Notes under the pieces: model-generated
Databases searched by the model: none
What the model saw: the letters and a program-made list of their open reading frames with translations, nothing else
What the model was told of the DNA's origin: nothing
Shown: positions 1,048 through 24,133 of the stretch, piece by piece
Position numbering within the stretch: the stretch's first letter is position 1
Layout of the letters: the number at the start of each line of letters is the position of its first letter
Assembly: GCA_035701785.1 (NCBI GenBank)
Contig: DASSRN010000602.1
Location: 1 to 38,140 of the forward strand
Reading direction: 5' to 3'
Source: Acetobacteraceae bacterium
GTDB lineage: Bacteria > Pseudomonadota > Alphaproteobacteria > Acetobacterales > Acetobacteraceae
DNA: 38,140 nucleotides
Program-made: the position numbers and the translations under genes

Positions 1048-1176
1048 CGCCGTTCCTCTGTTACCTGACCGCACCTTCCACCCGCGTGACGCCGGCGTCA
1101 ATCGGCTGGACAGGGTCGCCGCGCCTGGGCGATCATTCGCAGCGGCGTTGGCTCGCGACCCTGCTTTGAGGCGGTG

Positions 1177-4100
1177 ATGGATGTTGCCGAATGGCTGCGC
1201 GCGCTTGACCTGACCCAGTACGCCGCGGCCTTCCACGAGAACTCGATCAGCGCCGATCTGCTGCCGCGCCTGACGGCCGATGATCTGCGCGACCTCGGCG
1301 TGACGTCGGTCGGCCACCGCCGCCGGCTGCTCGATGCGATCGCCGCGCTGCGCGCCGGGGCAGGGGCCGAAAGCCACGCCGGCGCCATCGCCGAGGAAGC
1401 GCAGCGCCGTCCGCCGCCGGGTGCCGAGAGGCGCCAGGTCACCGTGATGTTCTGCGACATGGTGAATTTCACCGCTCTTTCGGCGGAACTGGATCCCGAG
1501 GACCTGAGCGCTGTCATTCGCGGCTATCAGGCGACCGTCGCTGCCACGATCGACCGCTCCGGCGGTTTCATCGCGCGCTATGTCGGCGACGGCGTGCTGA
1601 TCTATTTCGGCTGGCCCGAGGCGCGCGAGGCCGATGCCGAACGGGCGGTGCGCGCCGGACTGGCGGTGGTCCGCGAGATCGGCCAAGCGCCGAGTGGCGG
1701 TGTCCGGGTGGCCCTGCGCATCGGCATTGCCACCGGCCTCGTTGTGATCGGCGAACCGATCGGGGCCGGTGACGCGCGCCAGCAGACTGCAATCGGTGAA
1801 ACCCCCAACCTCGCAGCCCGCCTGCAGGCGCTGGCCGGCGACGACGGCATCGTCATCGACGCCGAGACGCACCGCCAGATCGGCCGGCTGTTCGACTGCA
1901 CCGATCTCGGGCGTCTCACTCTAAAGGGCATTCCTGGCCAGGTGCAGGCCTGGCAGGTGCTGAAGGAGGCGGCGATCGGCAGCCGCTTCGAGGCGCTGCA
2001 CGACAGGAGCCTTTCACCGCTGGTCGGCCGCGACGAGGAGATCGACCTCCTGATGCGGCGATGGGAGCAGGCGAAGGGCGGCAGCGGGCGCGTTGTGCTG
2101 ATCGTCGGCGAGCCGGGCATCGGCAAGTCGCGGCTGGTGGCCGAACTGGAGGCCCGCCTGCGTGACCAGGATCATGCCAGGCTGCGCTACTTCTGCTCGC
2201 CTGACTATTCTGACGCTCCGCTGCACCCGATCGTCCGGCAGATGGCACTGGCGGCCGAACTCGATCGCGCCGACGCGCACGAGGCGAAGTCGCAACGGCT
2301 GCGAGCCTTGCTTGGTGCGGGAACCGAGCGGGCAGATGTGGCCGCACTGGGCGCCCTGCTCGGTGTCGACGAGGCCGGCGGGAAGCGTTCGAGCGCGCGG
2401 CTGCATAAGGAACGCATATTCGCCGCCCTGCTCCGCCAGGCGGAGCGGCTGTGCCGTGAGCGACCACTGCTGGCGCTGGTCGAGGACGTGCACTGGGCGG
2501 ACCCCACCACGCGCGAACTGATCGACCTCGCGGTCACCCGGATGGCGGAGATGCGCGGCCTGCTGGTGCTGACCTTGCGGCCCGAACTTCAGGTGCCGTG
2601 GACCGGCCATGCAGGCGTCACCTCGATCACACTCAGCCGCCTGGATCGGAACGAGAGCACGGCACTCGCCGGGGTGCTGGCGACCGAGGACCTGCCGCCG
2701 GTGCTGCTACAGCGGATCGCCCAACAGGCTGATGGCGTGCCGTTGTTCATCGAGGAACTGACCAAGGACTGGGTCGAGCGCGCCAGGGACCCCGACGCGA
2801 CGCTGCAGACGATCGGCGTGCCGACAACGCTGCAAGGGTCACTGCTGGCGCGGCTCGACCGGCTGCCGGACGCGAAGCAGGTGGCGCAGGTCGGTTCGGT
2901 GATCGGGCGCGAGTTCTCGCACGAACTGATCAGCACTGCCGCGGACCTGCCCGACGACGTTTTCGCCAGCGGGCTCGAACAACTGGTCTCGTCGGGCCTT
3001 GCGCAGCGCCGCGGCGAGCCTCCCGCCGCCATCTATCGTTTCAAGCACGCGCTGGTGCAGCGCGCGGTCTATTCGACGCTACTGCGCGCGAACCGCCAGC
3101 GATTGCATGGACTGGTCGCAGACGCCCTGTCCGCCCAGCCCGACCCGGCACCGCAGATTCTGGCGCACCATCTGACCGAGGCCGGGCGGATGCCGGAGGC
3201 GGTGAAACACTGGTTGCGCGCCGGACAGCGCCTGGCGGGACGCTCGGCGGAGCGGGAAGCGATCAGCCTGTTCCGGCGTGGATTGGCCGCGCTGCTCACG
3301 CTGCCCGAAGGGCGCGATCGCGACCAGCGGGAGCTCGAGTTCAACATGGCCCTCGGGATGCCGCTGGTCACCACGGAAGGCTACGGGACCGACGTCGTCA
3401 GGGCCGTGTACGAACGCATAGCCGAGTTGAGCGAGCGCCTCGGGGATACCAGAAGCCTGCTGATCGCCACCTATGGGACCTTCGTGAGCTGCGTCGCCCA
3501 GGGCGACAATCGGCAAGCCACGGCTATCTCCGAACGCGCGAGCATCCGCTTCGCCAATGCGGGTGAGCCGGTGGGCCGTCTGATCCTGCACCGCATGGCG
3601 GGGTTCGCTGCATTCCAGGCCGGCCGATTCCGCGAGGCGCGGCATCAGCTGGAGGCGGTGCTCGAGCTCTACGATCCGGACGTGCATGCGTCCCTGGCAG
3701 GGACCTGGGGACATGACGCCCGCGTGGCGGCGCTCGACTATCTTAGCCACACCGTCTGGCTGCTGGGCTATCCCGACCAGGCCTGCCACCTGATGGATCA
3801 GGCGTTTGAAGCGGCACGGCAGGTTGCGCATGCGGGCAGCATCGGCCACGCCAGGTATTTCGCCGGGATCCTTTTCGCCGATCTGCGCCGCGATGCGGCC
3901 GCCCTGCGCCACCATCTGGACGCGGCACAGGAGTTCGACCGCGAGTATGCCCGACCAGGGTACAGCGTCTCGTTCTTTCACGGTATGTCCCTGTGTGACC
4001 AGGGGATGCCGGCCGATGGGCTTGCCCTCGCCGAGAGGAGCCTGGCGCAGCCGCCCAACAGCGGTGGCGAGCGGCGCACCTACATCCTGGGGCGGTTGGC

Positions 4101-4515
4101 GGCAGCGTATGCTGCAGCCGAGCAACTCGACCGCGGCTGGCAGACCATCAGCGAGGCGCAGGCCCTGAGCGCACGCAGCGCCGAACGTTCCTGGGATGCC
4201 GAGTTGGAGCGGATCGCCGGCGAGATCCAGCGTGCCAGGACTGGTGGCGGCAGCGCTGAAGCGCATCTCCGGCTTGCCATCGATACCGCGCGTCAGCAAG
4301 GGGCGAAGAGCCTCGAGCTACGCGCCGCCGTCAGTCTCGCGCGTCTGTTGCAGCATCAGGAGCGGCAGGCCGAAGCCCGCCAGCTACTGGCCGTCGCGTA
4401 CGCCGGATTCACAGAAGGTTTCGATACGCCCGATCTGCGCGATGCGAGCGCACTACTCTCGGAACTGGCGGGAGAACCTTACCACCCAGCCCAGCGATCG
4501 GGCGGACCAACCTGA
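1177..4515 (+). CDS. SAM-domain / class III adenylate-guanylate cyclase / STAND-type AAA NTPase / TPR multidomain signalling protein
   Basis: The N-terminus MDVAEWLRALDLTQYAAAFHENSISADLLPRLTADDLRDLGV is SAM-like. Cyclase motifs: VTVMFCDMVNFT, GDGVLIYFG, GETPNLAARLQ. Walker A is VGEPGIGKSRL and Walker B-like is LALVEDVHWADPTT, followed by a long helical TPR-like C-terminus. ATG 1177 (GAGG 5 nt upstream) is preferred over GTG 1174. Confidence 0.9.
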   Translation: MDVAEWLRALDLTQYAAAFHENSISADLLPRLTADDLRDLGVTSVGHRRRLLDAIAALRAGAGAESHAGAIAEEAQRRPPPGAERRQVTVMFCDMVNFTALSAELDPEDLSAVIRGYQATVAATIDRSGGFIARYVGDGVLIYFGWPEAREADAERAVRAGLAVVREIGQAPSGGVRVALRIGIATGLVVIGEPIGAGDARQQTAIGETPNLAARLQALAGDDGIVIDAETHRQIGRLFDCTDLGRLTLKGIPGQVQAWQVLKEAAIGSRFEALHDRSLSPLVGRDEEIDLLMRRWEQAKGGSGRVVLIVGEPGIGKSRLVAELEARLRDQDHARLRYFCSPDYSDAPLHPIVRQMALAAELDRADAHEAKSQRLRALLGAGTERADVAALGALLGVDEAGGKRSSARLHKERIFAALLRQAERLCRERPLLALVEDVHWADPTTRELIDLAVTRMAEMRGLLVLTLRPELQVPWTGHAGVTSITLSRLDRNESTALAGVLATEDLPPVLLQRIAQQADGVPLFIEELTKDWVERARDPDATLQTIGVPTTLQGSLLARLDRLPDAKQVAQVGSVIGREFSHELISTAADLPDDVFASGLEQLVSSGLAQRRGEPPAAIYRFKHALVQRAVYSTLLRANRQRLHGLVADALSAQPDPAPQILAHHLTEAGRMPEAVKHWLRAGQRLAGRSAEREAISLFRRGLAALLTLPEGRDRDQRELEFNMALGMPLVTTEGYGTDVVRAVYERIAELSERLGDTRSLLIATYGTFVSCVAQGDNRQATAISERASIRFANAGEPVGRLILHRMAGFAAFQAGRFREARHQLEAVLELYDPDVHASLAGTWGHDARVAALDYLSHTVWLLGYPDQACHLMDQAFEAARQVAHAGSIGHARYFAGILFADLRRDAAALRHHLDAAQEFDREYARPGYSVSFFHGMSLCDQGMPADGLALAERSLAQPPNSGGERRTYILGRLAAAYAAAEQLDRGWQTISEAQALSARSAERSWDAELERIAGEIQRARTGGGSAEAHLRLAIDTARQQGAKSLELRAAVSLARLLQHQERQAEARQLLAVAYAGFTEGFDTPDLRDASALLSELAGEPYHPAQRSGGPT

Positions 4516-4895
4516 TTGTATGGTTTCTTCCAGGTCTGGCAGATAAAAGGATAGCTCAGCGGACAGCACTCGGCGTTTTCAATCGTGTAGCCGATGAGCG
4601 CCGGAAGAATGCTATTGTAACCCAGGTTGATCTTACAGGTGAAACGATAATTCTGGTAGTAGTATGTGATCCCTGTGCGGCCATATGAATTGAACGGGAC
4701 CGAATATTTCGGCTCGAAGGTCGCCGGGTCATCGAAATGCTGCAGCACGATCGCGATGCGCACACCAAGTGCGTAGAGATCTGCTTCTCCTTTGGCTACG
4801 GGAAAATCCTGCGGCACCGCCTGTTGTGCCCACGCCGTGGCGGACAGCCAAAGCGCTATCGCAGGAATGCTGGCCAGAAGCCTGAACGCGCGCAT
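4479..4895 (-). CDS. Small secreted Cys-containing hypothetical protein (about 138 aa) with a Sec-type signal peptide
   Basis: ATG 4893..4895 is preceded by GGAGG (complement of 4903..4907). The signal peptide is MRAFRLLASIPAIALWLSATAWA|QQ. The mature part holds 4 Cys (FTCK, ECCP, FICQ) and a Tyr-rich beta-like stretch. I recognise no family. I counted 90 G+C in 180 nt across 4561..4740. Confidence 0.55.
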   Translation of the reverse strand: MRAFRLLASIPAIALWLSATAWAQQAVPQDFPVAKGEADLYALGVRIAIVLQHFDDPATFEPKYSVPFNSYGRTGITYYYQNYRFTCKINLGYNSILPALIGYTIENAECCPLSYPFICQTWKKPYNQVGPPDRWAGW

Positions 4896-4918
4896 GAATT
4901 GCCTCCGGGCGTAGCTTA

Positions 4919-5557
4919 TCACGGCATCGCAATGCCCGGCAACGCCAGGCGCGCATGCAACGCCCGCATGATCTCCGCGTGTACCTCCGCTGCATCACCG
5001 TCGGCCGACAGCAGCACGCAGCGTCCTGGTGCTGCGGCGGCAATGTCACGGAAACCCTGTCGCACGCGCGCGTGGAACAGTGCGTCGAGCCGCTCGTAGC
5101 GATCGGCGTCGGTGCCGCGTGCAATCTGGCGCGCCACGGCAACAGTGTCGCTAACGTCCAGCACCAGCGTGACGTCGGGCACGATGGCCAGCATGGCGAC
5201 CAGGCTTGCGATTACGGCGCGGTCGGCACCCTGGCCATAACCCTGGTAGGCGACGGTGGAGTCATAGAACCTGTCGCACACCACCCATAGGCCCGCGGCG
5301 AGCGCCGGGCGAATGGTCTTCTCCACATGCTCGGCACGTGCGGCGAAGTGCAGCAGGGTCTCGGCCGGCGCGGACCAGTCGAACTCCTCCCCCAGCAGCA
5401 GTTCGCGCAACCGTTCGGCACCGGCAGCACCGCCCGGCTCGCGCGTGCGCAGCACCGGAATGCCGAACCCGGTCAGCGCCTCGGCCAGCATACCTGCCTG
5501 AGTCGTCTTGCCGGCGCCTTCGCCGCCTTCCAACGTGATGAAATGGCCTTGCGGCAC
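4919..5557 (-). CDS. tmk: dTMP (thymidylate) kinase
   Basis: GTG start, then PQGHFITLEGGEGAGKTTQ (P-loop), REPGG, and a DRYE-type lid segment. Length of 212 aa is typical. Confidence 0.93.
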   Translation of the reverse strand: MPQGHFITLEGGEGAGKTTQAGMLAEALTGFGIPVLRTREPGGAAGAERLRELLLGEEFDWSAPAETLLHFAARAEHVEKTIRPALAAGLWVVCDRFYDSTVAYQGYGQGADRAVIASLVAMLAIVPDVTLVLDVSDTVAVARQIARGTDADRYERLDALFHARVRQGFRDIAAAAPGRCVLLSADGDAAEVHAEIMRALHARLALPGIAMP

Positions 5558-5564
5558 CCGGCTC

Positions 5565-6782
5565 CTAGCCGCCGGTTACGTAATGCGACAGCACCGCCAT
5601 GGCGCGTCCGGGCAGGCTCAGCTTGGCGACGTCCTCGCCGGCAAGCAGCGACACCTCCATGCCGGGCACGCCCTGGCCTGCCACCACCAGCTTGCCCAAG
5701 GTCGTGCCCTTCTGTACCGGCGCGCGGATCGGCGTGTCGTAGCTGACTTTGACCGAGGCGTTCTTGCGCCAATTGCGCGGCATCGTCACCACAAGGTCGC
5801 GGCCGCCGACCAGCGCCACCGTCGGGCGCGTGCCCAGCCAGACCGGCACCCGTTCGACCACGTCGCCGGCGGAGAACAGCGTCACGTCTTCGAAGTTGGC
5901 GAACGCCCAGTCCATCAGGCGCTCGCCCTCTTCGGCGCGCTGATGCATGGAGTCGAGCCCGTTGAGAACCACAATCACCCGCCGCTCGCCACGCTTGGCG
6001 CTCGCAACCAGGCCATAGCCGCCGGCCTCGGTGTGGCCGGTCTTCAGCCCATCGGCCGTGCCCTTCTGCACCAGGGGATTGCGGTTGCCCTGCTCGATAT
6101 TGTTGTACTTGAAGGTCTTCTCGGCGTCGTAGTGGTAGTACTCCGGGAAGTCGGCGATGATCCGCCGCGCCAGGGTGGCGATGTCGCGACAGCTCATGCG
6201 CTGCTCGGGATCCGGCCAGCCGGTGGAATTGCGGAAGTTCGAACTGGTCAGGCCGAGTTCCTTCGCCTTCTGGTTCATCAGGTCGGCGAACTGCTCTTCC
6301 GACCCGGCGATCGCTTCGGCGAAAACCACGCAGGCGTCGTTGCCCGACTGCACGATGACGCCCCGGATCAGGTCCTCGACCTTCACCTGCGTGCCGACCT
6401 GCACGAACATCTTCGAGCCGCCCATCTTCCAGGCGCGCTCGCTTACCAGCAACTCGTCGTCCAGCCGCAGCTTGCCCTGCTTCAGCCGCTCGTAGACCAG
6501 GTAGATCGTCATCAGCTTGGTCATCGACGACGGCGGCATCTCGGCATCGGCATTCTTCTCGAGCAGCGCCGTGCCGCTGTTGAAATCCTGAATGAACGCC
6601 CAGCGTGCCAGGGTGTCGACCGGACCGAGCGGCGTATCGCCCGGGCTGCCTGCCGGCGCATCCTTCTTGCCGCCACGCGCGGCGGTCTTGGGCGGGGGCG
6701 GATGCTTCGGCTGTGCGGCGGCGGTGAGCGTGCCGCCGGCGAAGATGGCTGATGCCAACAATGCATTCCGGCGGGTGAGCAT
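5565..6782 (-). CDS. Serine-type D-Ala-D-Ala carboxypeptidase (PBP5/6 family)
   Basis: SMTKLMT (SxxK), SGND (SxN) and KTGHT (KTG) motifs. Signal-like N-terminus MLTRRNALLASAIFAGGTLTAAA. ATG 6780..6782 with AGGAG upstream. The longer track start at 6818 would overlap rlpA. Confidence 0.9.
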   Translation of the reverse strand: MLTRRNALLASAIFAGGTLTAAAQPKHPPPPKTAARGGKKDAPAGSPGDTPLGPVDTLARWAFIQDFNSGTALLEKNADAEMPPSSMTKLMTIYLVYERLKQGKLRLDDELLVSERAWKMGGSKMFVQVGTQVKVEDLIRGVIVQSGNDACVVFAEAIAGSEEQFADLMNQKAKELGLTSSNFRNSTGWPDPEQRMSCRDIATLARRIIADFPEYYHYDAEKTFKYNNIEQGNRNPLVQKGTADGLKTGHTEAGGYGLVASAKRGERRVIVVLNGLDSMHQRAEEGERLMDWAFANFEDVTLFSAGDVVERVPVWLGTRPTVALVGGRDLVVTMPRNWRKNASVKVSYDTPIRAPVQKGTTLGKLVVAGQGVPGMEVSLLAGEDVAKLSLPGRAMAVLSHYVTGG

Positions 6783-6795
6783 CGCGACTCGACTC

Positions 6796-7659
6796 CTACT
6801 GCACGACGATCCGCGCATCGGTTACTCCGGAGCGCAGCACCTGGTCCAGCACGTTGTCGGCCTGCTGCACGCTGTCGAGCGGGCCGATGTACACCCGATG
6901 CGTCTGCGTGCGTCCGTTGCGCGTGCTGTCGATCGCCGCGCCAAGTCCGCCGACGCGGCTGCGCTGGATGGCGGCGTATTCATAGGTCTGGAACGTGCCG
7001 AGTTGGATGTAGAGCCGGCCGGGATAGGCGGCGCTCTGCGTCACTGTCTCCGGCAGCCCGGCGATCGTCACGCTGGCGGGTAGCGCCTCGCGCGGCGCCT
7101 CGGTGGTCGGTGCCTGTACCGGCGTTGCTGCCGCGGGCGAGGACAGATCGACCTGCTGCACCACGCCGCGTGGAGCGGCGGCGATAGCGAGCTTCGGCGC
7201 GCCTGGCAGTTGATCGACCGCGGCGTGGCTTTCCGCGGGCAGCACCTCGACGCGGGCGCGCACCGGTGTGCCGGATGGAAACCGCAGCAGCACCGCAACG
7301 CGGTTGGTGACCTCGACCATGCGATGCGGTGTCGCTGGCCCGCGGTCGTTGACGCGCACCACGAGTTGCAGGCCGTTCTCCAGGTTGGTCAGCCGGACGA
7401 TGGCGGGAAGCTGCAAGGTCTGGTGTGCGGCTGTGAGTGCGGACTGGTCGAAGATCTCGCCGTCTGTGGTCAGGTCCGGATGGTCGGACGGGTAGACGAT
7501 GGCGAGGCCGGTCTCCGCGCCGTCGTAGCTCTCACTGGGGTAGTACCAGACGCCGCCTGCCTGATACGGCGAGCCCAGGACGTAGTGTGGTGCGGCCGGC
7601 GGCGGGCGGTGGCACGACGCCACCAGCAGTGTGAAGACGGCGGCGATCGCGCGTTTCAC
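6796..7659 (-). CDS. rlpA: Septal-ring lytic transglycosylase RlpA family lipoprotein (DPBB domain plus C-terminal SPOR domain)
   Basis: Lipobox in MKRAIAAVFTLLVASC. The DPBB-like core is GVWYYPSESYDG...AAHQTLQLPAIVRLTNLENGLQLVVRVNDRGP. The C-terminal SPOR-like segment is LYIQLGTFQTYEYA...YIGPLDSVQQADNVLDQV. The GTG start overlaps the upstream stop as GTGA. Confidence 0.88.
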   Translation of the reverse strand: MKRAIAAVFTLLVASCHRPPPAAPHYVLGSPYQAGGVWYYPSESYDGAETGLAIVYPSDHPDLTTDGEIFDQSALTAAHQTLQLPAIVRLTNLENGLQLVVRVNDRGPATPHRMVEVTNRVAVLLRFPSGTPVRARVEVLPAESHAAVDQLPGAPKLAIAAAPRGVVQQVDLSSPAAATPVQAPTTEAPREALPASVTIAGLPETVTQSAAYPGRLYIQLGTFQTYEYAAIQRSRVGGLGAAIDSTRNGRTQTHRVYIGPLDSVQQADNVLDQVLRSGVTDARIVVQ

Positions 7660-8624
7660 GCGACGAAGCGGTCCCCGAGCAGTCCGACGGCAAGCGCATA
7701 GTAGTCGGACGGATTGTAACGACGGATCGCAGCAAAGTTTGCGTAGACCAGGAACGCCTCGCCGCCGGCGCCGTCCGGCTGCACCACGGCGGCCTGCGTC
7801 GCCGGCGACGCCAGCGGACGACCGTCAACGGACCGCACGCCGAGGCGTAGCCACTCGCTGACCGGGCGGCGGTCGTCGCGTCCACCCGCCGCGCGCTCGA
7901 TCGTAGGGCCCAGCGTCACTTGCTGGCCCCAGCTTTCGCCGGATCGCCAGCCGGATCGGGCGAGGTAGTTGGCGATCGAGCCGAACACGTCGGGCCTGCT
8001 GGTCCAGATGTCACGCCGGCCATGCCCTTCGAAGTCGACAGCGTAGGTCAGGTAGGAGGACGGCATGAACTGCGGCTGCCCCATCGCGCCGGCATAGGAC
8101 CCCAGCATGTGCGCCGGCGTGACGTCGCCGTGGTCCAGGATGCGCAGCGCGGCGATCAGTTCGCCGCGGAAGAAGCTGGTGCGGCGTCCCTCCCAGGCCA
8201 GGGTCGCCAGAGCCTCGACGACGTGGAAGTCGCCCATGCCGGTGCCGAAGTTGGATTCCAGCCCCCAGATGCCGGTGATCACCCCGGGATCGACGCCGTA
8301 GCGGTCGCGCACCCGGCCGAGCAATGCGCTGTTCTGCTGATAGGCGATGCGGCCGTTGGCGATGCGCTGGTCGGACACCAGGCGGGCGCGGTACTCGGCC
8401 CAGGTAAGGGTGAACTCGGGCTGGTGGCGGTCGCGCTCGATCACCTTCGGGTTCGGCTGTACGCCTGCAAACGCATGATCCAGGGTCGCCTGCGCGATCC
8501 CGGAGCGACGGGCCTCGGCTCGGACCCCGAGGAGGAAGTTCTGGAAGCCATCTGGTGCGGCACTGGCTGGCGCTGCGACGACCGCGCTTAGCGAGGTGGC
8601 CAGAAGCGAGCGGCGGTTGAGCAT
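7656..8624 (-). CDS. Lytic murein transglycosylase (MltB / SLT_2-like) with a twin-arginine-type signal
   Basis: MLNRRSLLATSLSAVVAAPASAAP (RR signal), then GIWGLESNFG and AGAMGQPQFMPSSY motifs typical of MltB-like enzymes. Start set at ATG 8622..8624. The 66 extra N-terminal codons in the track ORF run into the AT-rich island and look non-coding. Confidence 0.85.
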   Translation of the reverse strand: MLNRRSLLATSLSAVVAAPASAAPDGFQNFLLGVRAEARRSGIAQATLDHAFAGVQPNPKVIERDRHQPEFTLTWAEYRARLVSDQRIANGRIAYQQNSALLGRVRDRYGVDPGVITGIWGLESNFGTGMGDFHVVEALATLAWEGRRTSFFRGELIAALRILDHGDVTPAHMLGSYAGAMGQPQFMPSSYLTYAVDFEGHGRRDIWTSRPDVFGSIANYLARSGWRSGESWGQQVTLGPTIERAAGGRDDRRPVSEWLRLGVRSVDGRPLASPATQAAVVQPDGAGGEAFLVYANFAAIRRYNPSDYYALAVGLLGDRFVA

Positions 8625-8820
8625 GCGTGGCTCTGTGGCATGGCGCGGAGAGTCGGGGCAATCGCTGCGAACGGTCATAAACCGTACGATGGAACTACAC
8701 GTAATGCGTGTCCTGCGCCCGTAGTGTGGTTGTATGCCAAGGCGGCGCAACTTGGTTCGGAATGGAAGATTCAGTGCTTTGGTGTGGTTTTCATAGTATG
8801 ATGCTGTCGCGCGGGTTCGC

Positions 8821-9000
8821 ATAGCTAGTTAAGACAAATACAAAATGTAGCTGTGCTGATAAATAATTTACAATCTGAGATTGAGATGCAAGTAATCGCA
8901 TCCCAGAATACAAGGGAAGGGGTGATCATTTCTTATTTTTTCTAATTTAGATTGTCTTTGACTTGTTTACATTTGTTGCTTCCTTTGGTAGAAACAGGTC
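8821..9000. other. AT-rich island (33% G+C) in a genome of roughly 67% G+C; probable regulatory or foreign DNA
   Basis: Hand count gives 60 G+C in 180 nt across 8821..9000, against 41/60 in flanking line 8521..8580. No ORF there has a credible RBS. Confidence 0.85.
8966..8994 (+). promoter_or_regulatory. Candidate sigma70-type promoter for the small ORF (TTTACA, 17-nt spacer, TAGAAA)
   Basis: TTTACA at 8966..8971, a 17-nt spacer, then TAGAAA at 8989..8994. This would give a leader of about 27 nt before ATG 9029. Pattern match only. Confidence 0.25.
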
Positions 9001-9028
9001 CAGGCAATCAAGCCATGGAGATTAAACC

Positions 9029-9202
9029 ATGACCGAGACACAAAAGATCACCCAGACCGGTACCCAGACCGTTTCTGCGGACGCAACATCCCCTGTCGCT
9101 CGGGCGGGCGCAAATTCTGACAAGCGCATCTCGATTACTGCTCCGGACAGTGTTAAGGACGCAGGAAGGGTGCATATCGGTGCCGGCATGATGCGTTTCT
9201 AA
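9029..9202 (+). CDS. Unlisted 57-codon ORF encoding a small hydrophilic protein or peptide of unknown family
   Basis: GGAG at 9017..9020 lies 8 nt before ATG 9029..9031, and TAA is at 9200..9202. Hand translation: MTETQKITQTGTQTVSADATSPVARAGANSDKRISITAPDSVKDAGRVHIGAGMMRF. It falls below the 60-aa cutoff of the track. Third-position G+C is about 59% by my count, lower than the neighbours. The next gene starts 65 nt downstream. Confidence 0.5.
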   Translation: MTETQKITQTGTQTVSADATSPVARAGANSDKRISITAPDSVKDAGRVHIGAGMMRF

Positions 9203-9267
9203 AACAAAAAAGCCAGCCCTTTGCGCCGACCGTGCGGCACGCCGTGCAGGCTGCTGGTGGAGAGCGC

Positions 9268-10059
9268 ATGAGCCAGGTGCCGGTTGTCGAGTTCTTCCGC
9301 CTGATCCCCGAGGCGAGGTCGCCGAAGCGAGCAGAGCGTTCAGCCGCTGGGTATCTGCCCAGCCGAGCGATGCGCTACTGCGATGCTGTGACCTCCGCCA
9401 CGGGGTTCGGCTACTGGATTTTCCCGCCGATCGACGTGCGCCTGCTTTGGGATGGCGAGCAGATCGCTTGGTCCTATGGCGACGACGAACGCTGGCTGCC
9501 CTTGTCAGGTACCCCGAGCGGCGCGGTCCAGTTTCCCGGGTTTGCTGCAGCATTCGACTCGATGGTTCCGGACGTTCTTCGCGGCTACTCCCCGCCGTTC
9601 CTCACCGCTCTGCCAGAGTTAGGTGCGATCCAGATCTGGACGGGTCTGCTGGCCAGGACCCGCCCCGGGTGGAGCCTCTCAGTGCGTCCGCCCGTCAACC
9701 TGCCCGGGATCCCCGGGCTCGCGGGATGGGAAGGCATCGTCGAGACGGACATCTGGTTCGGGCCACTTTTTTCGAATTTCCGCATTACCCGTACAGATAC
9801 ACCGGTGCACATACGGGCATACGCGCCTTTTCTGCAAGTCCAGCCGATTCCACAGCTCGCATATCGCGACGAGACGCTGGCCTCGTTCGTCTGTCGGGAT
9901 CCGTCGGAACTAGGCGCCGAGGACTGGGATCGCCTGGGAGAAGTGCTGCTGCCGCACCCCGACCACAGCGTCCGGCAGGGTGCCTATGCGGTGACTGTAC
10001 GCAAACGGCGTTTGTGTCCAATCGACCACACTACCCTGCTGGCCGATCCTAAGACCTAA
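9268..10059 (+). CDS. DUF6065-like protein of unknown function
   Basis: ATG 9268 is preceded by GGTGGAGAG. The segments AMRYCDAVTSATGFGYWIFPPIDVRLLWDG and GWEGIVETDIWFGPLFSNFRITRT resemble, from memory, the conserved F/YRC-P...GW...P...W-G and G-IETDW..Y.F..N blocks of DUF6065 proteins. No catalytic motif recognised. Confidence 0.65.
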   Translation: MSQVPVVEFFRLIPEARSPKRAERSAAGYLPSRAMRYCDAVTSATGFGYWIFPPIDVRLLWDGEQIAWSYGDDERWLPLSGTPSGAVQFPGFAAAFDSMVPDVLRGYSPPFLTALPELGAIQIWTGLLARTRPGWSLSVRPPVNLPGIPGLAGWEGIVETDIWFGPLFSNFRITRTDTPVHIRAYAPFLQVQPIPQLAYRDETLASFVCRDPSELGAEDWDRLGEVLLPHPDHSVRQGAYAVTVRKRRLCPIDHTTLLADPKT

Positions 10060-11354
10060 CGCGGAACCCCGGCGCGCCGCAGACCCTCAGTGTAGAACGC
10101 CCTGTCTTCCGGCCGCAGCGGTGGTCGGGCGACTATCCGGTCGATGGTCACGTCAGGGTCGATTGCGCGGAGCATCGACAGGCACTCTCGGGCCTCCTCA
10201 TGGCGCGACATATGACCCAGGATCGCGAGGCGCACGTTCAGCGCCGAAGCGTGGTTGGTATTCCGTTCCAGCACCAACTCGGCAAGCATGTCTGCCTCCT
10301 CAAGGTGATGGCTGAAGAAGTGTGCGGTCATCAGCGCGTGCTCGACGAAGAACAGGTGCGGATCTCGCGGCGACAGAGCCATGGACATCGTAGCATGGCT
10401 GATCGCCGCAGCATGTTCGCCGTTGTAGATCCTGGACCAGGCGCTCACCGTCCAGGCTACCGGCAGGTTGGGGTTCAACTCGATCGCACGCGCGTGCAGC
10501 AGTAGCGCGCTGCGCACGTCATGCATCAGATAGCCCTTCACATGGCCGGCGATGGCGAGCGCGCGTGCATCCAGCGGGTCTAGCTGCACCGCCTTCTCGG
10601 CCGAAGAGCCGGCGAGCCTGATGACCTCGCGGGGATCATCGGCCCAGCCCAGGCCGACCGCCATGATACTCCAGTAGGCCATCCATGCCTGCGCTGCGCC
10701 ATACTCGGGATCAAGCCTGATCGCCCGCGCCAGCAGGTCATGCGCCTGCACGAACATTGATCGATCCAGCCGGAAAATTCCCTGGATCGCAGTGAGTACG
10801 GAATGGTGCGCCTCGGCGACATCGGTCCGCATAGGCGGCTCGAAGGCCGAACTGCGGTGGAACAGTTCGGGATCGACCTGCGCTACGGTTTCCGATGCGA
10901 TCCGGTGCTGCAGCGAGAACAGGTCGTTCAGATGACCCTCGAAGCGGCCGGTCCAGATCACCTCGAAATCCAGCACCACATCGAGCAGGGTTACGTTGAC
11001 ATGCACCTCCTCATCCAGGACCTGAATGGTGCCGTCGATGACATAGTCGAGCTGGTAGGTGCGGCATCGGCTGAGCGCGTCGGGCGCCGGGCCCGTCCCA
11101 TCCCAGAACGTGGCCGTCGCCATCAGTCGCGGCGTGCGGAAGCGGGACAGCGCGGCCGAGACCTCCTCGGCCATGCCGAGAGCGATGCCGTGACCGATCG
11201 GCGTCCCGACGCTGCGGAACGGCAGAACCGCCATCCGCCAGCCGAGTTGATGATCGGAAATCCAGGCCCTCAGATCCGTGCTCTGCATGCTACGGCAGAC
11301 GGCCAACCATATCGTCACGGCGAGGCTTACCTGTAGATTTAACGATCGCCTCAC
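10056..11354 (-). CDS. TolB-N-like / TPR repeat protein with no recognisable output domain (start uncertain: GTG 11354 or ATG 11288)
   Basis: The N-terminal block RMAVLPFRSVGTPIGHGIALGMAEEVSAALSRF matches modules found next to TPRs in CadC-like regulators and some rhizobial cyclases. TPR-like helices follow (AIRLDPEYGAAQAW, AVQLDPLDARA, AIELNPNLPVAW, LRAIDPD). A hydrophobic N-terminal segment VSLAVTIWLAVC is present if the GTG start is used. Confidence 0.8.
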   Translation of the reverse strand: MRRSLNLQVSLAVTIWLAVCRSMQSTDLRAWISDHQLGWRMAVLPFRSVGTPIGHGIALGMAEEVSAALSRFRTPRLMATATFWDGTGPAPDALSRCRTYQLDYVIDGTIQVLDEEVHVNVTLLDVVLDFEVIWTGRFEGHLNDLFSLQHRIASETVAQVDPELFHRSSAFEPPMRTDVAEAHHSVLTAIQGIFRLDRSMFVQAHDLLARAIRLDPEYGAAQAWMAYWSIMAVGLGWADDPREVIRLAGSSAEKAVQLDPLDARALAIAGHVKGYLMHDVRSALLLHARAIELNPNLPVAWTVSAWSRIYNGEHAAAISHATMSMALSPRDPHLFFVEHALMTAHFFSHHLEEADMLAELVLERNTNHASALNVRLAILGHMSRHEEARECLSMLRAIDPDVTIDRIVARPPLRPEDRAFYTEGLRRAGVPR

Positions 11355-11517
11355 GCGCCATTATGCTGCCTCATGCGACATTATACCCTAGCAACGTGCA
11401 CGCGGTGCCACGCAACCATATCTACCATGCCGCGTGTCGGCCGCAAAAGAGTCGGGCGACGGCCCAACGGAACGGGCCATTGCTGAAACGAGCGGGGCCT
11501 GAGGTGAAGTCGCTGGA

Positions 11518-12702
11518 ATGCCTTTCCTGATCGCACCGCAGTCCCTGGCATTCACCGTCCTGCTGGGCGTGCTCGCCGCATTGCCCGCCGTCTCCATCGA
11601 CATCACCACGCCCGCGCTGCCGCTGCTGCCGCAGGCACTCGGCACATCGAGCGCGGTTGCCAGCCTCACGCTGTCGCTGTTTATGGTCGGCTTCGCGCTG
11701 GGTCAGCTGGTCGGTGGCTACCTGTCAGATCGCGGCGGCCGCAGGCCGGTGCTGCTGATTGGTCTCGCCCTCTATGCCGGCGCAGCGCTTTTCTGCACCA
11801 TCGCCTGGTCCGGTGTAGGGCTGGTCGCATGTCGCCTGGCACAGGGCGTAGGTGCCGGGGCCTGCTCGGTCCTGTCGTTCGCCATGGTCCAGGACCTGTT
11901 CGTCGGTGAGGAGGCACGCACCAAGCGATCCTACGTGACAGTGGTCTTCGGCCTCGTTCCCATGCTCGCCCCGGCCCTGGGCACCCTGATCATCCATCTT
12001 GGCAGCTGGCGGACAATCTATGCCGTTCTCGCCACGGCCGGGGGCTTATTGCTGATGGTGAGCAGCCTTGGGCTGAAGGAGTCCAGGCGAGCAGTCGCGG
12101 ACGGGACAGGTGCGATGAGCAGGCCGCGTGTCTTGCTCCTGGCCCACGACAAGCGCTTCGTAGCGATCGCGGCCGCCAACGCGCTCAGCTACGCCGCGAT
12201 CTTCGCCTATATCGCCGGGTCGTCGTTCGTGATGATCGGCATCATGGGATACTCCGCGGCGACCTTCGCGGCAGTGTTTGCCAGCACTGCTGCCGCCCTG
12301 ACCGCAGGCGCTTGGGTCAACGGCCGGCTCAGCACTGCGGGCATTGAGGCGGCTACCGCCATTGGTCCCGCGCTGACCGTCGCCGTCGCCACGACGCTCG
12401 CCCTCGCTGCCGCAAGCCTGAGCGGGCACACCTCCGGCCTGATCCTGCTGCCTCTGCTGCTGCTGACGATGTTCACCCGCGGCATCATCGCGCCGAACCT
12501 GCAGCATCTTGCGATCGAACGACACGTCGAACAGGCGGGAACGGCATCCGCCGCGGTCGGGGTTTCGCAACTGCTGTCCGGCGCCCTCGCGAGCGCGATC
12601 GTCGGCGTCGCGCTGCCCGCCTACGGCGTAAGTGCTGTTGCGGTTCCGATGGCCATAGTGACGATTGGCGCTCTCGCGCTCTGGTACGGGACCTGCCGTT
12701 GA
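11518..12702 (+). CDS. MFS transporter, Bcr/CflA drug-resistance subfamily
   Basis: About 12 predicted TM segments. The motif GQLVGGYLSDRGGRRPVLLIG is MFS motif A. The N-terminus AVSIDITTPALPLL is typical of Bcr/CflA proteins. Confidence 0.88.
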   Translation: MPFLIAPQSLAFTVLLGVLAALPAVSIDITTPALPLLPQALGTSSAVASLTLSLFMVGFALGQLVGGYLSDRGGRRPVLLIGLALYAGAALFCTIAWSGVGLVACRLAQGVGAGACSVLSFAMVQDLFVGEEARTKRSYVTVVFGLVPMLAPALGTLIIHLGSWRTIYAVLATAGGLLLMVSSLGLKESRRAVADGTGAMSRPRVLLLAHDKRFVAIAAANALSYAAIFAYIAGSSFVMIGIMGYSAATFAAVFASTAAALTAGAWVNGRLSTAGIEAATAIGPALTVAVATTLALAAASLSGHTSGLILLPLLLLTMFTRGIIAPNLQHLAIERHVEQAGTASAAVGVSQLLSGALASAIVGVALPAYGVSAVAVPMAIVTIGALALWYGTCR

Positions 12703-12704
12703 AC

Positions 12705-15014
12705 TCAGTTGCCGTCAGGCGCGGCGAAGGTCTTCGGACGCAGCGTCGCCTGCACCCGATCTCCTGCCATGGCCCTGCCGGAATAGTAGCCCTGGATCAG
12801 CCGGCAACCGAGGTCGCGCAGGATCGCGAGTTCGCGTTCGGTCTCCACGCCTTCCGCGACCACTGTTACGCCAAGCTGCTCACCGAGTGACAGGATCGCC
12901 CGAACGATCGCAATCGTACCATCGTCCTCGCCTAACCCGCGCACGAAGGACTGGTCGATCTTCATGCGCGTGAAGGGAAATCGGCGCAGGTAGCTGAGAC
13001 TTGCGTACGCAGTGCCGAAATCATCCAGTGTGATGCCGATACCCAGCTCACGCAGCCGATGCGTGGTCGCCAGCACAAGGTCTGATTCGTCGAGCAGCAC
13101 GCCCTCGGTCACCTCCAGATCCAGCCGTTCGGCCGGCAGGCCGGTCCGGCGCAGTACCTCGGTGACCTGTTCGGGGAAGTCGGGCTGGCGGAACTGCAGC
13201 GGCGAGCAGTTGACCGAAAGCCATACCGGACGGCCCCAGCCTGCAGCATCCATGCAGGCTGTCTCCAGAGCCCATCGGCCGAGTGGCATGATCTGCCCGC
13301 TCGATTCGGCAACCTGGATGAAGTGTTCCGGTTCGATCCACTCGCGGGTGGGGTGGTTCCACCGCAAGAGGGCCTCAAAGCCCCTTGCCTGCAGCGATGC
13401 GATGTCACAGACCGGCTGGTAGACCAGCGAGAACTGCCTCTGCTGGATTGCCTCCCGCAGGTCCTGCTCCATGAGGAAGCGTTCTTCCTGGCGGACCTGC
13501 ATCGCGGCTTCGAACAGTCGGAACGTGTTACGACCGGCTTCCTTGGCGCGATACAGCGCGATATCGGCGTTGCGCAGCAGCGCATCCGGATCGTCGCCGT
13601 CCTGCGGATAGAAGGCGACTCCCACCGACGTGCCGATGACCGAACGCTGACCCTTCAGCTCGAAGGGCTGGCCGACCGCCGCGATCAGCCGCTGCGCCAA
13701 CGAGATGGCGCCAGCCGGCTGATGGCCGGTCGACTGGATAATGGCGAACTCATCACCCCCCATCCGGGCGACGGTGTCCCCCTCGCGCAGGTTGTCGCGC
13801 AGGCGCTGGGCGACGGCGACCAGCAGGTGGTCGCCGGTCTCATGTCCGTGCGTGTCATTCACCAGCTTGAACCCATCCAGGTCGAGGTAGAGCAGCGCGA
13901 AACCGGTGCTGCCGCTCTGCGCCGCCGCCATCGCCACGCGGAGGCGCTCCTGGAACATGACGCGGTTCGCCAGCTGGGTCAGCGCGTCGTGGTGCGCCAG
14001 GAACCGGATGCGCTCCTCGGTCACCTTGCGGAACAGCGCCGGGCGGATGGTGTCGGCCAGCGAGGCAATGTCAGCGGTAACCGCATCGAGGTCGGACCGC
14101 TCGGTGGTGAAGCCCAGCGAGATCCCGAACCGCTGCTGCTGCACCCAGATCGGCACACAGACCTGAGCCGTAAGGCCGCCGCTGGCGCTGCTTTCGGTTG
14201 TCGGGAATTTGCTTGCCTGGGCCTTGTTGAAGCGCACCGCGCCGGCGGCGGCGGTGCTCAACTGGGTCATCGACGCCAGGAAGCGCGCACCATCGCCGAG
14301 CCGGTCCTCCTCGTCAAAGCGGCTGATCTCGTGCAGCGGATCGTTCGCCTGGATCAGCTGCCAGATCCGCCCGATCGCCGCGCCATGGAAGCGGCAGAGT
14401 TCCTCGAGCAGGTTGGTGAGCGCGCTGGCGCAGGACGCCGCCTCGGATACCAGGCGTAACAGCCGATCAACCCGCAGCGCTCGATCCGCAACGTGCATCA
14501 GGTGGAGATGCCGTTGTTCGCGCCTGCGATCGGCCATGATCATGCTGGCGATGTCACCGAGTGACGCGATCTGCGCCTCGGTCAGTCCGTCGCGCGGTGC
14601 CCGGTCGAGCACTGCGATGAAACCGATGCGCTCGCCGCCAGCCGACAGCAGCTTCAGATGCGCCATAAAGTGCATCCCGGCGAGATCCGGCAGCCTGCAC
14701 TGGGCGGAGAAGCGGGCGTCCTTCGTCAGATCGGGAACTGTGATGAGGCCCGGTTGAGCGTGCAGGATCCTGTCGATTTCCTGGATCGCGGTCGGCCGCT
14801 CCTGCGGCAGGCCGTAGGAAGCGAGGGTCGGGTTGCGGTCACTGCGGCGACCCTGGACCCCGACGATAGCCGCCGAGGTCCCCGCGACGTTGGCCGCCAG
14901 TCGGGCGAAGTGTTCCAGCAACAGGCCACTTCTGGGCGTCACGGCGGTCGCGGTCTCCCTGGCTTTCGCAGCGGCCGGCTTACCAGCGGATGATAGCACC
15001 GCCCGACGCGCCAT
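12705..15014 (-). CDS. GAF-type sensor / GGDEF / EAL protein (c-di-GMP turnover)
   Basis: RMGGDEFAII (GGDEF), FEALLRW (EAL) and DDFGTAYASLSYL motifs, with two N-terminal GAF-like regions. Confidence 0.9.
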   Translation of the reverse strand: MARRAVLSSAGKPAAAKARETATAVTPRSGLLLEHFARLAANVAGTSAAIVGVQGRRSDRNPTLASYGLPQERPTAIQEIDRILHAQPGLITVPDLTKDARFSAQCRLPDLAGMHFMAHLKLLSAGGERIGFIAVLDRAPRDGLTEAQIASLGDIASMIMADRRREQRHLHLMHVADRALRVDRLLRLVSEAASCASALTNLLEELCRFHGAAIGRIWQLIQANDPLHEISRFDEEDRLGDGARFLASMTQLSTAAAGAVRFNKAQASKFPTTESSASGGLTAQVCVPIWVQQQRFGISLGFTTERSDLDAVTADIASLADTIRPALFRKVTEERIRFLAHHDALTQLANRVMFQERLRVAMAAAQSGSTGFALLYLDLDGFKLVNDTHGHETGDHLLVAVAQRLRDNLREGDTVARMGGDEFAIIQSTGHQPAGAISLAQRLIAAVGQPFELKGQRSVIGTSVGVAFYPQDGDDPDALLRNADIALYRAKEAGRNTFRLFEAAMQVRQEERFLMEQDLREAIQQRQFSLVYQPVCDIASLQARGFEALLRWNHPTREWIEPEHFIQVAESSGQIMPLGRWALETACMDAAGWGRPVWLSVNCSPLQFRQPDFPEQVTEVLRRTGLPAERLDLEVTEGVLLDESDLVLATTHRLRELGIGITLDDFGTAYASLSYLRRFPFTRMKIDQSFVRGLGEDDGTIAIVRAILSLGEQLGVTVVAEGVETERELAILRDLGCRLIQGYYSGRAMAGDRVQATLRPKTFAAPDGN

Positions 15015-22943: not shown

Positions 22944-24133
22944 GCCGGCACCGTATGATGCTCAAGCCAGTCGTGCAGCTCGCTTTCCGACATCGGCCGT
23001 CCGAACCGCCAGCCCTGCCCGACATGGCAGCCAGCAGCGCGCAGCCGTTCAATGACCGAGTCCGTTTCCACACCTTCAGCGACCACGGACAGGCCCAGCC
23101 CGCGCGCCAGCGAGATGGTCGCGCGGATGATCTTCCACGCCTCTTCATCCGTCTCGCACGATGCGATGAAGGACCGGTCGATCTTCAGCTCGGTGAACGG
23201 CAGCCGCAGTAGCGTCAGCAGCGACGAATAGCCAGTACCGAAGTCGTCCATCGACAGGCCGATGCCCTTGATGCGCAGCCGGGTCAGCACCTCGATCGCC
23301 GGCAGTGGATTGGCAATGAAGGTCGATTCCGTGACTTCGGCGATCACCGCGCCTGGCGCCAGCGCGTGCGCTACCAGCAATGCCTCGATCTCGTCGGGCA
23401 AATCGGGCTCGGTCAACACCAGTGGAGAAATGTTCACCGCCACGCCGCACGAAGGATGGCGGGTCCGCCAGCGCTGGCAGGCGGCGAGCGAGTCGGCCAG
23501 GACGCTGCGCGTGAGTGGAATGATCAGCCCGGTCTGCTCGGCCAGTGGGATGAAGACGTCAGGCGGTACCTGGCCATGCAGCGGATGGCGCCAGCGCGCC
23601 AGGGCTTCGACACCCACCGGCTTGCCGTTGGCCAGCGTCACCTTCGGCTGGAAGGCGGTGACGATGTCGTGCTGCTCGATCGCGTTGCGCAGTTCCGCCT
23701 CGGTCGGCTGGGTGCCGGTCACCAGCTTATGGTGCGGACGCAATGGCAGCGGCGCATCCAGCAGCGCCCGCAACGCCGTCGGGCCGACCGGCTTCGGCAG
23801 AGCGCCCGCGACGCGCAGACCAAGCTCGCTGGCAAAGCGGATGCAGGCGGCGCGCACCCGATCATCGAGCCGCGTGATGAAGATCACCACCGGATCCGAC
23901 TGTCCCGACGCGATCTGTCGCAGCAGGCTGATGCCCTCTCGTTCGCCCAGCGACAGGTCCAGTACCACAACATCATATGCCTGCGTGGCGAGCCGGGCAG
24001 TAGCATCGTCCAGCGAAGCCGCACTCTCGGCGTCGAAGCCGCACGAAGCCATCGCGCGCGTGATGATCAGGCACTGGACGGGTTCGTCATCCACCACCAG
24101 GAGGCGACGAACGGGATCGGTCTGCGTGTTCAT
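22940..24133 (-). CDS. Response regulator with EAL output domain (REC-EAL)
   Basis: MNTQTDPVRRLLVVDDEP...YDVVVLDLSLG is the REC domain. VEALARW and DDFGTGYSSL mark the EAL domain. The stop overlaps the kinase start as ATGA (22940..22943). The upstream 113 codons of the track ORF are discarded. Confidence 0.9.
   Translation of the reverse strand: MNTQTDPVRRLLVVDDEPVQCLIITRAMASCGFDAESAASLDDATARLATQAYDVVVLDLSLGEREGISLLRQIASGQSDPVVIFITRLDDRVRAACIRFASELGLRVAGALPKPVGPTALRALLDAPLPLRPHHKLVTGTQPTEAELRNAIEQHDIVTAFQPKVTLANGKPVGVEALARWRHPLHGQVPPDVFIPLAEQTGLIIPLTRSVLADSLAACQRWRTRHPSCGVAVNISPLVLTEPDLPDEIEALLVAHALAPGAVIAEVTESTFIANPLPAIEVLTRLRIKGIGLSMDDFGTGYSSLLTLLRLPFTELKIDRSFIASCETDEEAWKIIRATISLARGLGLSVVAEGVETDSVIERLRAAGCHVGQGWRFGRPMSESELHDWLEHHTVPA

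Follow-up and report, generated by a model that had tools for sequence, protein, structure and literature searches.

We identified a small open reading frame in the genome of an Acetobacteraceae bacterium as a real, conserved peptide gene whose C-terminal motif occurs in 1 to 18 tandem copies in relatives and almost always sits just upstream of a gene for an uncharacterized DUF6065 protein with a predicted dUTPase-like fold. This pairing points to an undescribed peptide-maturation and export system, probably a new kind of RiPP, although no modification of the peptide has been observed in this computational analysis. The window, meaning the whole stretch of DNA analyzed, is 38,140 nucleotides long (assembly GCA_035701785.1, contig DASSRN010000602.1, positions 1 to 38,140 of the forward strand). 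A first-pass annotation had proposed that the small ORF and its neighbor form a precursor-peptide/enzyme or small-protein/partner pair, with the adjacent exporter and TPR protein as accessories. Our results support this interpretation, and the gene content and coordinates were confirmed. The features of the locus are as follows.

8966 to 8994 (+), promoter-like block consisting of TTTACA (8966-8971), a 17-nt spacer and TAGAAA (8989-8994), inside an AT-rich island
9017 to 9020 (+), Shine-Dalgarno GGAG of the peptide gene, 8 nt before the ATG
9029 to 9202 (+), 57-aa peptide gene with a variable T/S/A-rich N-terminal part and one conserved C-terminal cassette
9152 to 9199 (+), the 16-residue cassette VKDAGRVHIGAGMMRF, ending at the stop codon
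9203 to 9267 (+), 65-nt spacer between the peptide and DUF6065 genes, carrying the GGAG of the DUF6065 gene at 9259-9262
9268 to 10059 (+), DUF6065-like protein of 263 aa with a predicted dUTPase-like beta-barrel fold, the candidate maturation enzyme
10056 to 11354 (-), TPR protein (432 aa as listed, with the conserved part starting near residue 35, HQLGWRMAVLPF), a probable regulator or receptor
11518 to 12702 (+), Bcr/CflA-family MFS efflux transporter, the probable exporter of the product
12705 to 15014 (-), GGDEF-EAL protein of 769 aa with a weak GAF-like N-terminus

We first evaluated the identity of each gene by profile searches. The DUF6065-like ORF is best started at the ATG at 9268, in agreement with the N-termini of its homologues, and scored 36.9-37.1 bits against Pfam DUF6065 (PF19541), for which the cut-off is 26.6. 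All 37 aligned homologues also matched, but only profile positions 85-161 of 236 were covered, so this is a divergent subfamily. The TPR gene overlaps the DUF6065 stop by 4 nt in convergent orientation. Its TPR hits were weak in Pfam (TPR_17, 26.4 vs 24.4) but clear against consensus TPR proteins in the PDB (E 3e-22), whereas the TolB-like N-terminal domain suggested in the first-pass annotation was not confirmed by any library, with no Pfam or NCBIfam hit in residues 1-190. The MFS transporter matched TIGR00710 (Bcr/CflA) at 224.1 bits against a cut-off of 200.9, and the GGDEF-EAL protein matched Pfam EAL and GGDEF at 240 and 164 bits, respectively. No PADLOC hit was found, and the only PHROG hit was a weak one of unknown function to the TPR part.

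We next examined the conservation of the small ORF upstream of DUF6065 genes. Five protein homologues of the peptide were found at 60-98% identity, and the C-terminal motif recurred upstream of the DUF6065 gene in 61 of 64 sources. All 121 motif hits in 706 kb, searched in six frames, lie within 1.7 kb upstream and on the same strand as the DUF6065 gene, an arrangement far beyond chance. Two of the three negative sources lack upstream DNA, while the third, a homologue with 1.7 kb of upstream DNA, has no motif. In 22 loci, the D, G, V, G, G, M, M and F positions of the cassette are invariant while the degenerate ones (D, G, V, F) use several synonymous codons, showing that the peptide is translated and under purifying selection. 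The general form of the cassette is [TS]-[KQR]-D-x-G-[RKQ]-V-x-h-G-x5-[FY], and the shared core across the wider family is basic-V-x-h-G, often followed by GG. The N-terminal ~40 residues are a variable spacer and not a conserved leader, and the shortest precursors are only 26 aa.

The number of cassettes varies among relatives, as in a multi-core precursor: one copy was found in 29 sources, two in 23, three in four, four in four, and 18 in one (75-nt period x 17.5, 97% identity). Clades at 43-46% enzyme identity keep the pairing with their own motif variants, GDKVvRDtATQDqGKVRLGDnAPaF in 2-4 copies and TKDKGQVvIGSRSPAF in 2-3 copies. Remote clades at 29-40% identity again have upstream small ORFs with KVKAIGGG-type motifs, some of them repeated.

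We also considered whether the small ORF could be a cis-acting leader or arrest peptide controlling translation or transcription of the DUF6065 gene. It does lie 65 nt upstream on the same strand, and its conserved sequence ends exactly at the stop codon. However, it has its own strong Shine-Dalgarno sequence, which is conserved in an alignment of seven loci, and it reaches up to 462 aa with 18 in-frame cassettes in a relative. The spacer, which is 49-86 nt in most related loci, has no plus-strand terminator-like site and no conserved or significant RNA structure (z = 0.57). The AT-rich island upstream is real (GC of 0.51 in 8501-9000 against about 0.66 around it), and TTTACA and a downstream TTG(A/G)TA element are the only conserved blocks among the seven otherwise divergent upstream regions, although a consensus scan did not call the promoter-like block and its function is inferred. 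We thus regard a leader-peptide role as very unlikely.

The neighboring genes are conserved as well. In most Acetobacteraceae loci, the TPR and MFS genes remain linked to the pair in varying order and orientation, and near-full-length matches to the GGDEF-EAL protein, at 51-80% identity, lie next to the pair in about 20 loci in different arrangements. Other clades use EamA or other MFS exporters, with EamA, response regulators and a dCache kinase in clade 2 and a PRMT-like methyltransferase, EamA and TPR in the gamma clade, where one locus also has a PAS-GGDEF-EAL gene. TPR homologues in three loci and in the gamma clade carry an extra N-terminal winged-helix-like domain, which fits a regulator. 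Remote DUF6065 homologues occur in a RiPP context: a LanB dehydratase is immediately upstream in one locus, B12-radical-SAM and DUF6817 genes are immediately upstream in a second, and an Asp/Asn beta-hydroxylase is present in a third. DUF6817-DUF6065 fusion proteins also exist, and a DUF6817 enzyme, SmaX, is an experimentally shown RiPP tailoring enzyme acting on hydroxy-Asp in Gly-rich cores (PMC12186529). Within the window module itself, however, Pfam and NCBIfam searches identified no known class-defining RiPP enzyme, no RRE and no dedicated peptidase, and MFS and EamA pumps are not typical RiPP exporters.

Between 746 and more than 3185 homologues of the DUF6065-like protein were found. 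Its predicted structure (pLDDT 79.3, pTM 0.78) matched only trimeric dUTPases among the top 50 Foldseek hits (probability 1.0, E 2e-4 to 6e-3, TM 0.55-0.73 on the target), and a weaker first model gave the same family. This assignment rests on a prediction only, and the sequence-level link is not significant: a profile search of PDB sequences returned no dUTPase, no Pfam dUTPase or DCD hit appeared even at E <= 5, and hhalign against E. coli Dut gave E 0.31 over 30 columns. Cys38 and Asn144 are invariant, and Glu159 and Asp161 are near-invariant. No column had His at 45% or more in the remote-representative alignments, and in another alignment the only such columns (64 and 250) hold Glu and Cys in the window protein; no His is conserved family-wide. 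The 2-His-1-carboxylate iron site of Fe(II)/2OG Asp beta-hydroxylases (SmaO, CinX, YhhC type) is therefore absent.

The predicted fold raises the possibility that DUF6065 is a nucleotide-handling enzyme of the dUTPase superfamily and that the repeat peptide is a stoichiometric partner (a regulator, inhibitor, scaffold or trans-acting Gly-rich arm) rather than a substrate. The motif EGIVETDIWFGP lines up with dUTPase motif III in the best hhalign segment, the Gly-rich peptide motif with its terminal aromatic residue may loosely recall dUTPase motif V, and some relatives are fused to an HD-like domain. On the other hand, a range of 1 to 18 cassettes is poorly explained by a partner of fixed stoichiometry, other clades have non-Gly-rich motifs such as LGDNAPAF and IGSRSPAF, and the conserved exporter and RiPP-enzyme neighbors fit a product better than a regulator. 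We consider this alternative doubtful.

A further alternative, possible but in our view unlikely, is that the cassettes are cut out and exported as short, unmodified linear signaling peptides, with DUF6065 acting as a new kind of processing peptidase (Cys38 as nucleophile) and the TPR protein sensing them with c-di-GMP as the output. In support of this, DUF6065 is the only enzyme in the window module, the cassettes end in h-G-[GAS]-type sequences and an aromatic residue and follow one another directly, and the exporters are small-molecule pumps. The conserved TPR neighbors with winged-helix domains also agree with this idea, and the remote homologues beside enzymes that already supply the modification (LanB, radical SAM) leave a processing role open for DUF6065. 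However, there is no conserved His or other standard partner for a Cys protease, the fold is not that of any known peptidase, and the TPR protein of the window lacks a DNA-binding domain. In remote clades, the peptide ends one residue after GGG, so cutting there would release almost nothing.

Taken together, we favor, with moderate confidence, a model in which the 57-aa ORF is a cassette-type ribosomal precursor peptide and the DUF6065-like protein is its dedicated cytoplasmic maturation enzyme. A promoter-like element in the AT-rich island would drive the peptide gene, probably together with the DUF6065 gene. The enzyme is inferred to recognize each cassette and to modify and/or cut it, with the conserved Asp and the Gly run as the most likely targets, and relatives with 2-18 cassettes would yield several product molecules per precursor. 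The small product is inferred to leave through the MFS pump (EamA in other clades), while the TPR and GGDEF-EAL proteins may regulate or respond to it, which suggests a self-produced signal or bioactive peptide tied to c-di-GMP control. A more far-reaching possibility, which we hold only tentatively, is that DUF6065 proteins are the class-defining enzymes of an undescribed RiPP family widespread in soil Proteobacteria, using a dUTPase-derived barrel with a catalytic Cys/Glu/Asp set for a new peptide modification on a basic-V-x-h-G(GG) cassette, with each precursor giving 1-18 copies of an exported self-signal read by TPR regulators and c-di-GMP enzymes. No paper in the literature searched mentions DUF6065 or PF19541, and our model would assign a first biological context to a family of 956 clusters at 50% identity (more than 3000 at 90%) and add a new enzyme fold to peptide natural-product biosynthesis. 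The recurrent link to exporters, TPR/winged-helix regulators, two-component systems and c-di-GMP enzymes hints at peptide-based cell-cell signaling in Alpha- and Gammaproteobacteria, where acyl-homoserine lactones are the best-known signals.

Several known systems share some of these features. As in RRNPP-type peptide quorum sensing of Firmicutes (Rap/NprR/PlcR/PrgX/Rgg), a small peptide gene lies next to a TPR-repeat protein that carries a DNA-binding domain in relatives, which suggests peptide sensing. Here, however, the hosts are Proteobacteria, the peptide has no hydrophobic signal sequence, the TPR protein of the window lacks an HTH, and there is an intracellular partner enzyme and an MFS pump. 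No homology to RRNPP receptors was shown. Relative to homotrimeric dUTPases (Dut), with which the segment R140...N144...EGIVETD aligns at motif II-III, the DUF6065-like protein has about 100 extra residues, no recognizable motif I Asp or C-terminal P-loop-like motif V, and an invariant Cys38 without counterpart. Its genomic context is a peptide gene and not nucleotide metabolism, and nucleotide hydrolases have no precedent in peptide maturation.

In the SmaO/SmaX Asp-to-aminomalonate cascade (PMC12186529), the enzymes act on Asp in Gly-rich core sequences, and the cassettes described here likewise have a conserved Asp and a Gly run. The window has no DUF6817 gene and no Fe(II)/2OG oxygenase, DUF6065 cannot be a standard 2-His-1-carboxylate hydroxylase like SmaO, and the SmaO target is D-G while the motif here is D-x-G. 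In multi-core RiPP precursors, such as those of cyanobactins, multi-core microviridins and other graspetides, plant BURP-domain peptides and fungal dikaritins, a short ribosomal precursor similarly carries a variable number of tandem, near-identical cassettes next to a dedicated enzyme gene and an exporter, and multi-core processing has precedent (PMC5934393). The system described here differs from these in having no ATP-grasp, protease/macrocyclase, BURP or UstYa enzyme and no conserved leader, in its DUF6065 partner with a predicted dUTPase-like fold, and in export by an MFS or EamA pump rather than an ABC/PCAT transporter.

The region examined lies in a GC-rich (~0.66) chromosome segment, with a 200-300 nt AT-rich island (GC 0.51 in 8501-9000) just upstream of the small open reading frame (ORF). 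Two further dips in GC content were found at 4501-5000 (0.57) and 31001-32000 (0.58-0.59). The genes around the island are ordered as follows:

6796..7659 (-), RlpA-like gene
7656..8822 (-), SLT_2 lytic transglycosylase
9029..9202 (+), small ORF, 57 aa
9268..10059 (+), DUF6065-like gene, 263 aa
10056..11354 (-), TPR gene, overlapping the DUF6065 stop by 4 nt
11518..12702 (+), Bcr/CflA MFS gene
12705..15014 (-), GGDEF-EAL gene

Both + strand genes of the peptide-DUF6065 pair are preceded by GGAG Shine-Dalgarno sequences, at 9017-9020 and 9259-9262, and the 65-nt spacer between them has no +-strand terminator-like site. Folding of the spacer RNA (9195-9275) gave nothing different from shuffled sequences. 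A terminator-like hairpin with a T-run was found on the minus strand inside this spacer (9211-9231), where it would stop antisense transcripts reading through from the convergent TPR gene, although the number of such sites is at chance level for the region. A scan of the whole window against Rfam found nothing, no tRNAs were found, and repeat searches around the AT-rich island returned only short, chance-level matches. The Pfam DUF6065 match is genuine but partial (37 bits against a cut-off of 26.6, covering profile positions 85-161 of 236), while NCBIfam contained no model matching either the peptide or the DUF6065 protein. The TolB-like label that the first-pass annotation gave to the TPR protein could not be confirmed for its N-terminal half, but the TPR half is solid.

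Elsewhere in the window, a 1113-aa protein with SAM, adenylate/guanylate cyclase, and AAA_16 ATPase domains (a STAND-like signalling protein) is encoded at 1174-4515 (+). A hybrid histidine kinase (dCache-like, PAS_7, HisKA, HATPase, receiver, Hpt) followed by a receiver-EAL protein at 20109-24472 (-) adds more c-di-GMP and two-component signalling near the module. An ORF at 27051-28433 (+) has a protein-L-isoaspartate O-methyltransferase (PCMT) domain in residues 233-432 and about 230 unassigned N-terminal residues; long ORFs on both strands overlap it, so its true start is unclear, and no link to the Asp-containing peptide motif described below was established.

We next took comparative approaches to evaluate whether the small ORF is a gene and whether it is tied to DUF6065. 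A protein search found five homologues of the 57-aa product at 60-98% identity, all of which share ...ITAPDSVKDAGRVH(I/V)G(A/G)GMMRF at the C-terminus and differ in the N-terminal half. In the window peptide, this variable N-terminal part includes an exact 10-nt direct repeat at 9050-9071 (ACCCAGACCG twice, 12 nt apart) that encodes TQTGTQT, a low-complexity T/Q-rich sequence. One of the five homologues lies directly upstream of a DUF6065 gene, followed by TPR, MFS, and GGDEF-EAL genes, although the gene upstream of the peptide gene is different (ApbA family). A scan of one genome per species returned 52 loci encoding DUF6065 relatives, mostly from Acetobacteraceae MAGs, and a tblastn search with ORF inspection showed a small ORF with the same motif upstream of nearly all of them.

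To test the specificity of this pairing, we ran a regular expression for the motif on all six frames of 64 sources (706 kb). The search gave 121 hits, every one of which was within 1.7 kb upstream of the DUF6065 gene and on the same strand, with none anywhere else. Of the three negative sources, two have fewer than 55 nt of upstream DNA, and only the locus L054 is truly negative. In 22 loci, the last 16 codons, which in the window encode TKDAGRVHIGGGMMRF, keep D, G, V, G, G, M, M, and F invariant, whereas the degenerate positions (D, G, V, F) use several synonymous codons, which is the signature of selection on the protein. An alignment of seven otherwise unalignable upstream regions shows three conserved elements before the start codon: TTTACA, a TTG(A/G)TA element about 17 nt downstream, and the GGAG. 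The peptide gene therefore appears to have its own promoter inside the AT-rich island, at 8966-8994 of the window.

The C-terminal motif behaves as a cassette. Copy number among the sources is 1 (29 sources, including the window), 2 (23), 3 (4), 4 (4), and 18. The 18-copy case is the locus L026, where a 462-aa ORF (4528-5916) carries 18 near-identical 25-residue cassettes (GDATPARDATKDSGRVRIGGGAIHY) with a 75-nt period x 17.5 at 97% identity by TRF, which looks like a recent expansion. This range of 1-18 copies is the main reason for disfavoring two alternative readings, namely that the peptide is a stoichiometric partner of a nucleotide enzyme, which we consider unlikely, or that it is a cis-acting leader peptide, which we consider very unlikely. 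In the main clades each unit ends in Phe or Tyr, the next unit follows directly or after a short spacer, and the last unit is followed by a stop codon or by 1-3 residues. The shortest precursors are 26 aa (MAKQTKTPASTKDTGRVKIGGGSLTF), so no long conserved leader exists.

Distant enzyme clades (43-46% identity) keep the arrangement with their own motif variants. In the Xanthobacteraceae / Pseudolabrys type the cassette is GDKVvRDtATQDqGKVRLGDnAPaF, present in 2-4 copies, and in the Gammaproteobacteria it is TKDKGQVvIGSRSPAF, present in 2-3 copies. Across these clades a 14-residue frame, D-x-G-x-V-x-h-G-x5-F, is preserved. A metagenome scan seeded with still more remote representatives (29-40% identity) again found upstream small ORFs, with the sequences MKIALATSVRAVTSNGSKVKAVGGGLGKVKAIGGGN, MKKIVLSSKVKRTYSGSVKVFANGGGAR, a six-fold KD[ST]GKVKLGAGLAPAAL repeat, and STRDMGKVKVGGTVTRF. 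The element shared across the family is basic-V-x-h-G, often followed by GG. Enzyme clade and peptide motif therefore co-vary, which argues for direct recognition. A different small-ORF type, with an acidic helical N-terminus and a C-terminus ending in GAAW followed by the stop codon, lies upstream of remote DUF6065 homologues in three loci (L078:274-477, L084:838-933, and L088:3383-3484).

In the Acetobacteraceae loci, homologues of the window's TPR, MFS, and GGDEF-EAL proteins (46-88% identity, mostly full length) remain next to the pair while their order and orientation change, for example in L005, L009, L016, L021, L022, L026, L030, and L040. The flanking RlpA and SLT_2 genes, by contrast, are syntenic only in the closest relative, L042, so they are not part of the module. 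In clade 2, the neighbors are HTH_3, RR-GerE, a dCache-HAMP hybrid kinase, ABC_sub_bind, an EamA exporter, and a single-domain response regulator, followed by the precursor and DUF6065. In the gamma clade we found the precursor, DUF6065, a PRMT-like methyltransferase (in L055), EamA, a 566-600-aa TPR protein homologous to the window's (25% identity, E 2e-6), and a PAS-GGDEF-EAL protein. The L055 methyltransferase gene (6779-7804; PRMT_C and PrmA hits, arginine methyltransferase-like) lies immediately downstream of the DUF6065 gene, and the cassettes there contain a conserved Arg (IGSRSPAF). The gamma-clade TPR proteins, and those of the loci L031, L035, and L037, carry an additional N-terminal winged-helix-like domain. 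The recurring theme is a precursor and DUF6065 with a small-molecule exporter and signal-transduction or regulatory proteins. Searches with PADLOC and PHROG exclude known defense or phage modules.

The DUF6065 family is large, with 746 proteins found by a single-sequence query and more than 3185 by a profile in the 90% clusters, and a scan of 1.84 billion representatives found 956 clusters at 50% identity with E <= 1e-3. The protein is very conserved within the clade (71% mean column identity). Across remote representatives only Gly28, Cys38, and Asn144 are invariant, while Glu155, Glu159, and Asp161 (motif EGI[IV]ETD.W.GP) are present in 76-100% of sequences, and no His is conserved anywhere across the family. 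A first AlphaFold model from a shallow alignment was weak (pLDDT 62), so we replaced it with a second model from 60 diverse sequences, which reached pLDDT 79.3 and pTM 0.78. In a Foldseek search against the PDB, all top 50 hits of this model are homotrimeric dUTPases, with E 2e-4 to 6e-3, probability 1.0, and TM 0.55-0.73 on the target, and the weak model gave the same answer. Sequence-level tests, however, do not confirm membership. A search of PDB sequences with the family profile returned no dUTPase and only weak, probably spurious acetylcholine-binding-protein hits, and no Pfam dUTPase hit appeared at E <= 5. The hhalign comparison against E. coli Dut was not significant (E 0.31), although its best segment aligns VR..N..EGIIETD with Dut motifs II-III, PRSG..GLIDSDY. 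We therefore describe the protein as a predicted dUTPase-like barrel of unknown activity and not as a dUTPase.

Remote DUF6065 homologues also sit in recognizable RiPP contexts. In the locus L071 (695-4741) the homologue lies directly downstream of a full-length LanB lantibiotic dehydratase, with an HTTM-domain protein downstream. In L080 (1392-4747) it lies after a B12-binding radical SAM enzyme and a DUF6817 protein, in L072 (3304-4759) it follows an Asp/Asn beta-hydroxylase, and in L082 and L088 it is next to MFS exporters. Two remote representative proteins (P0346 and P0380, 452 and 436 aa) are DUF6817 (HD-like, SmaX family) fused N-terminally to DUF6065. The only paper mentioning DUF6817 in the literature searched shows that the DUF6817 enzyme SmaX converts beta-hydroxy-Asp to aminomalonate in a Gly-rich RiPP core, after hydroxylation by the Fe/2OG enzyme SmaO, and reports that SmaO-SmaX fusions exist (PMC12186529). 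The two DUF6817-DUF6065 proteins may be fusions of this type. We considered whether DUF6065 could itself be a SmaO-like 2OG oxygenase, but because no His is conserved it cannot be a standard 2-His-1-carboxylate oxygenase. Even so, the association places the family among peptide-tailoring enzymes and makes the conserved Asp of the cassette a candidate target. Literature searches for DUF6065, PF19541, and dUTPase-like proteins with precursor peptides returned nothing.

Taken together, our analyses identified a translated and selected small gene that is paired with DUF6065 across deep divergence (L054 being the exception), carries a variable number of cassettes whose motif co-varies with the enzyme clade, and lies in a conserved neighborhood of exporter and regulator genes, alongside an enzyme with a dUTPase-like predicted fold and remote homologues that neighbor RiPP enzymes. 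From these observations we infer that the peptide is the substrate of the enzyme, that each cassette yields one small product, that this product is exported by the MFS pump, and that the TPR and GGDEF-EAL proteins regulate or respond to it. We consider this precursor and maturation-enzyme model more likely than not, with moderate confidence, while a variant in which the cassettes are only cleaved to give a signaling peptide is possible but unlikely. The first-pass annotation, which had proposed from gene arrangement a precursor-peptide/modifying-enzyme (RiPP-like) or small-protein/partner pair with export and regulation by the adjacent genes, was confirmed in its observation and supported in its interpretation, although the module should extend to the GGDEF-EAL gene (to 15014) and to the promoter region from 8966. 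The system resembles known RiPPs in being a RiPP-like cassette system, but differs from them in an enzyme family and a predicted fold not previously linked to peptides in the literature searched.
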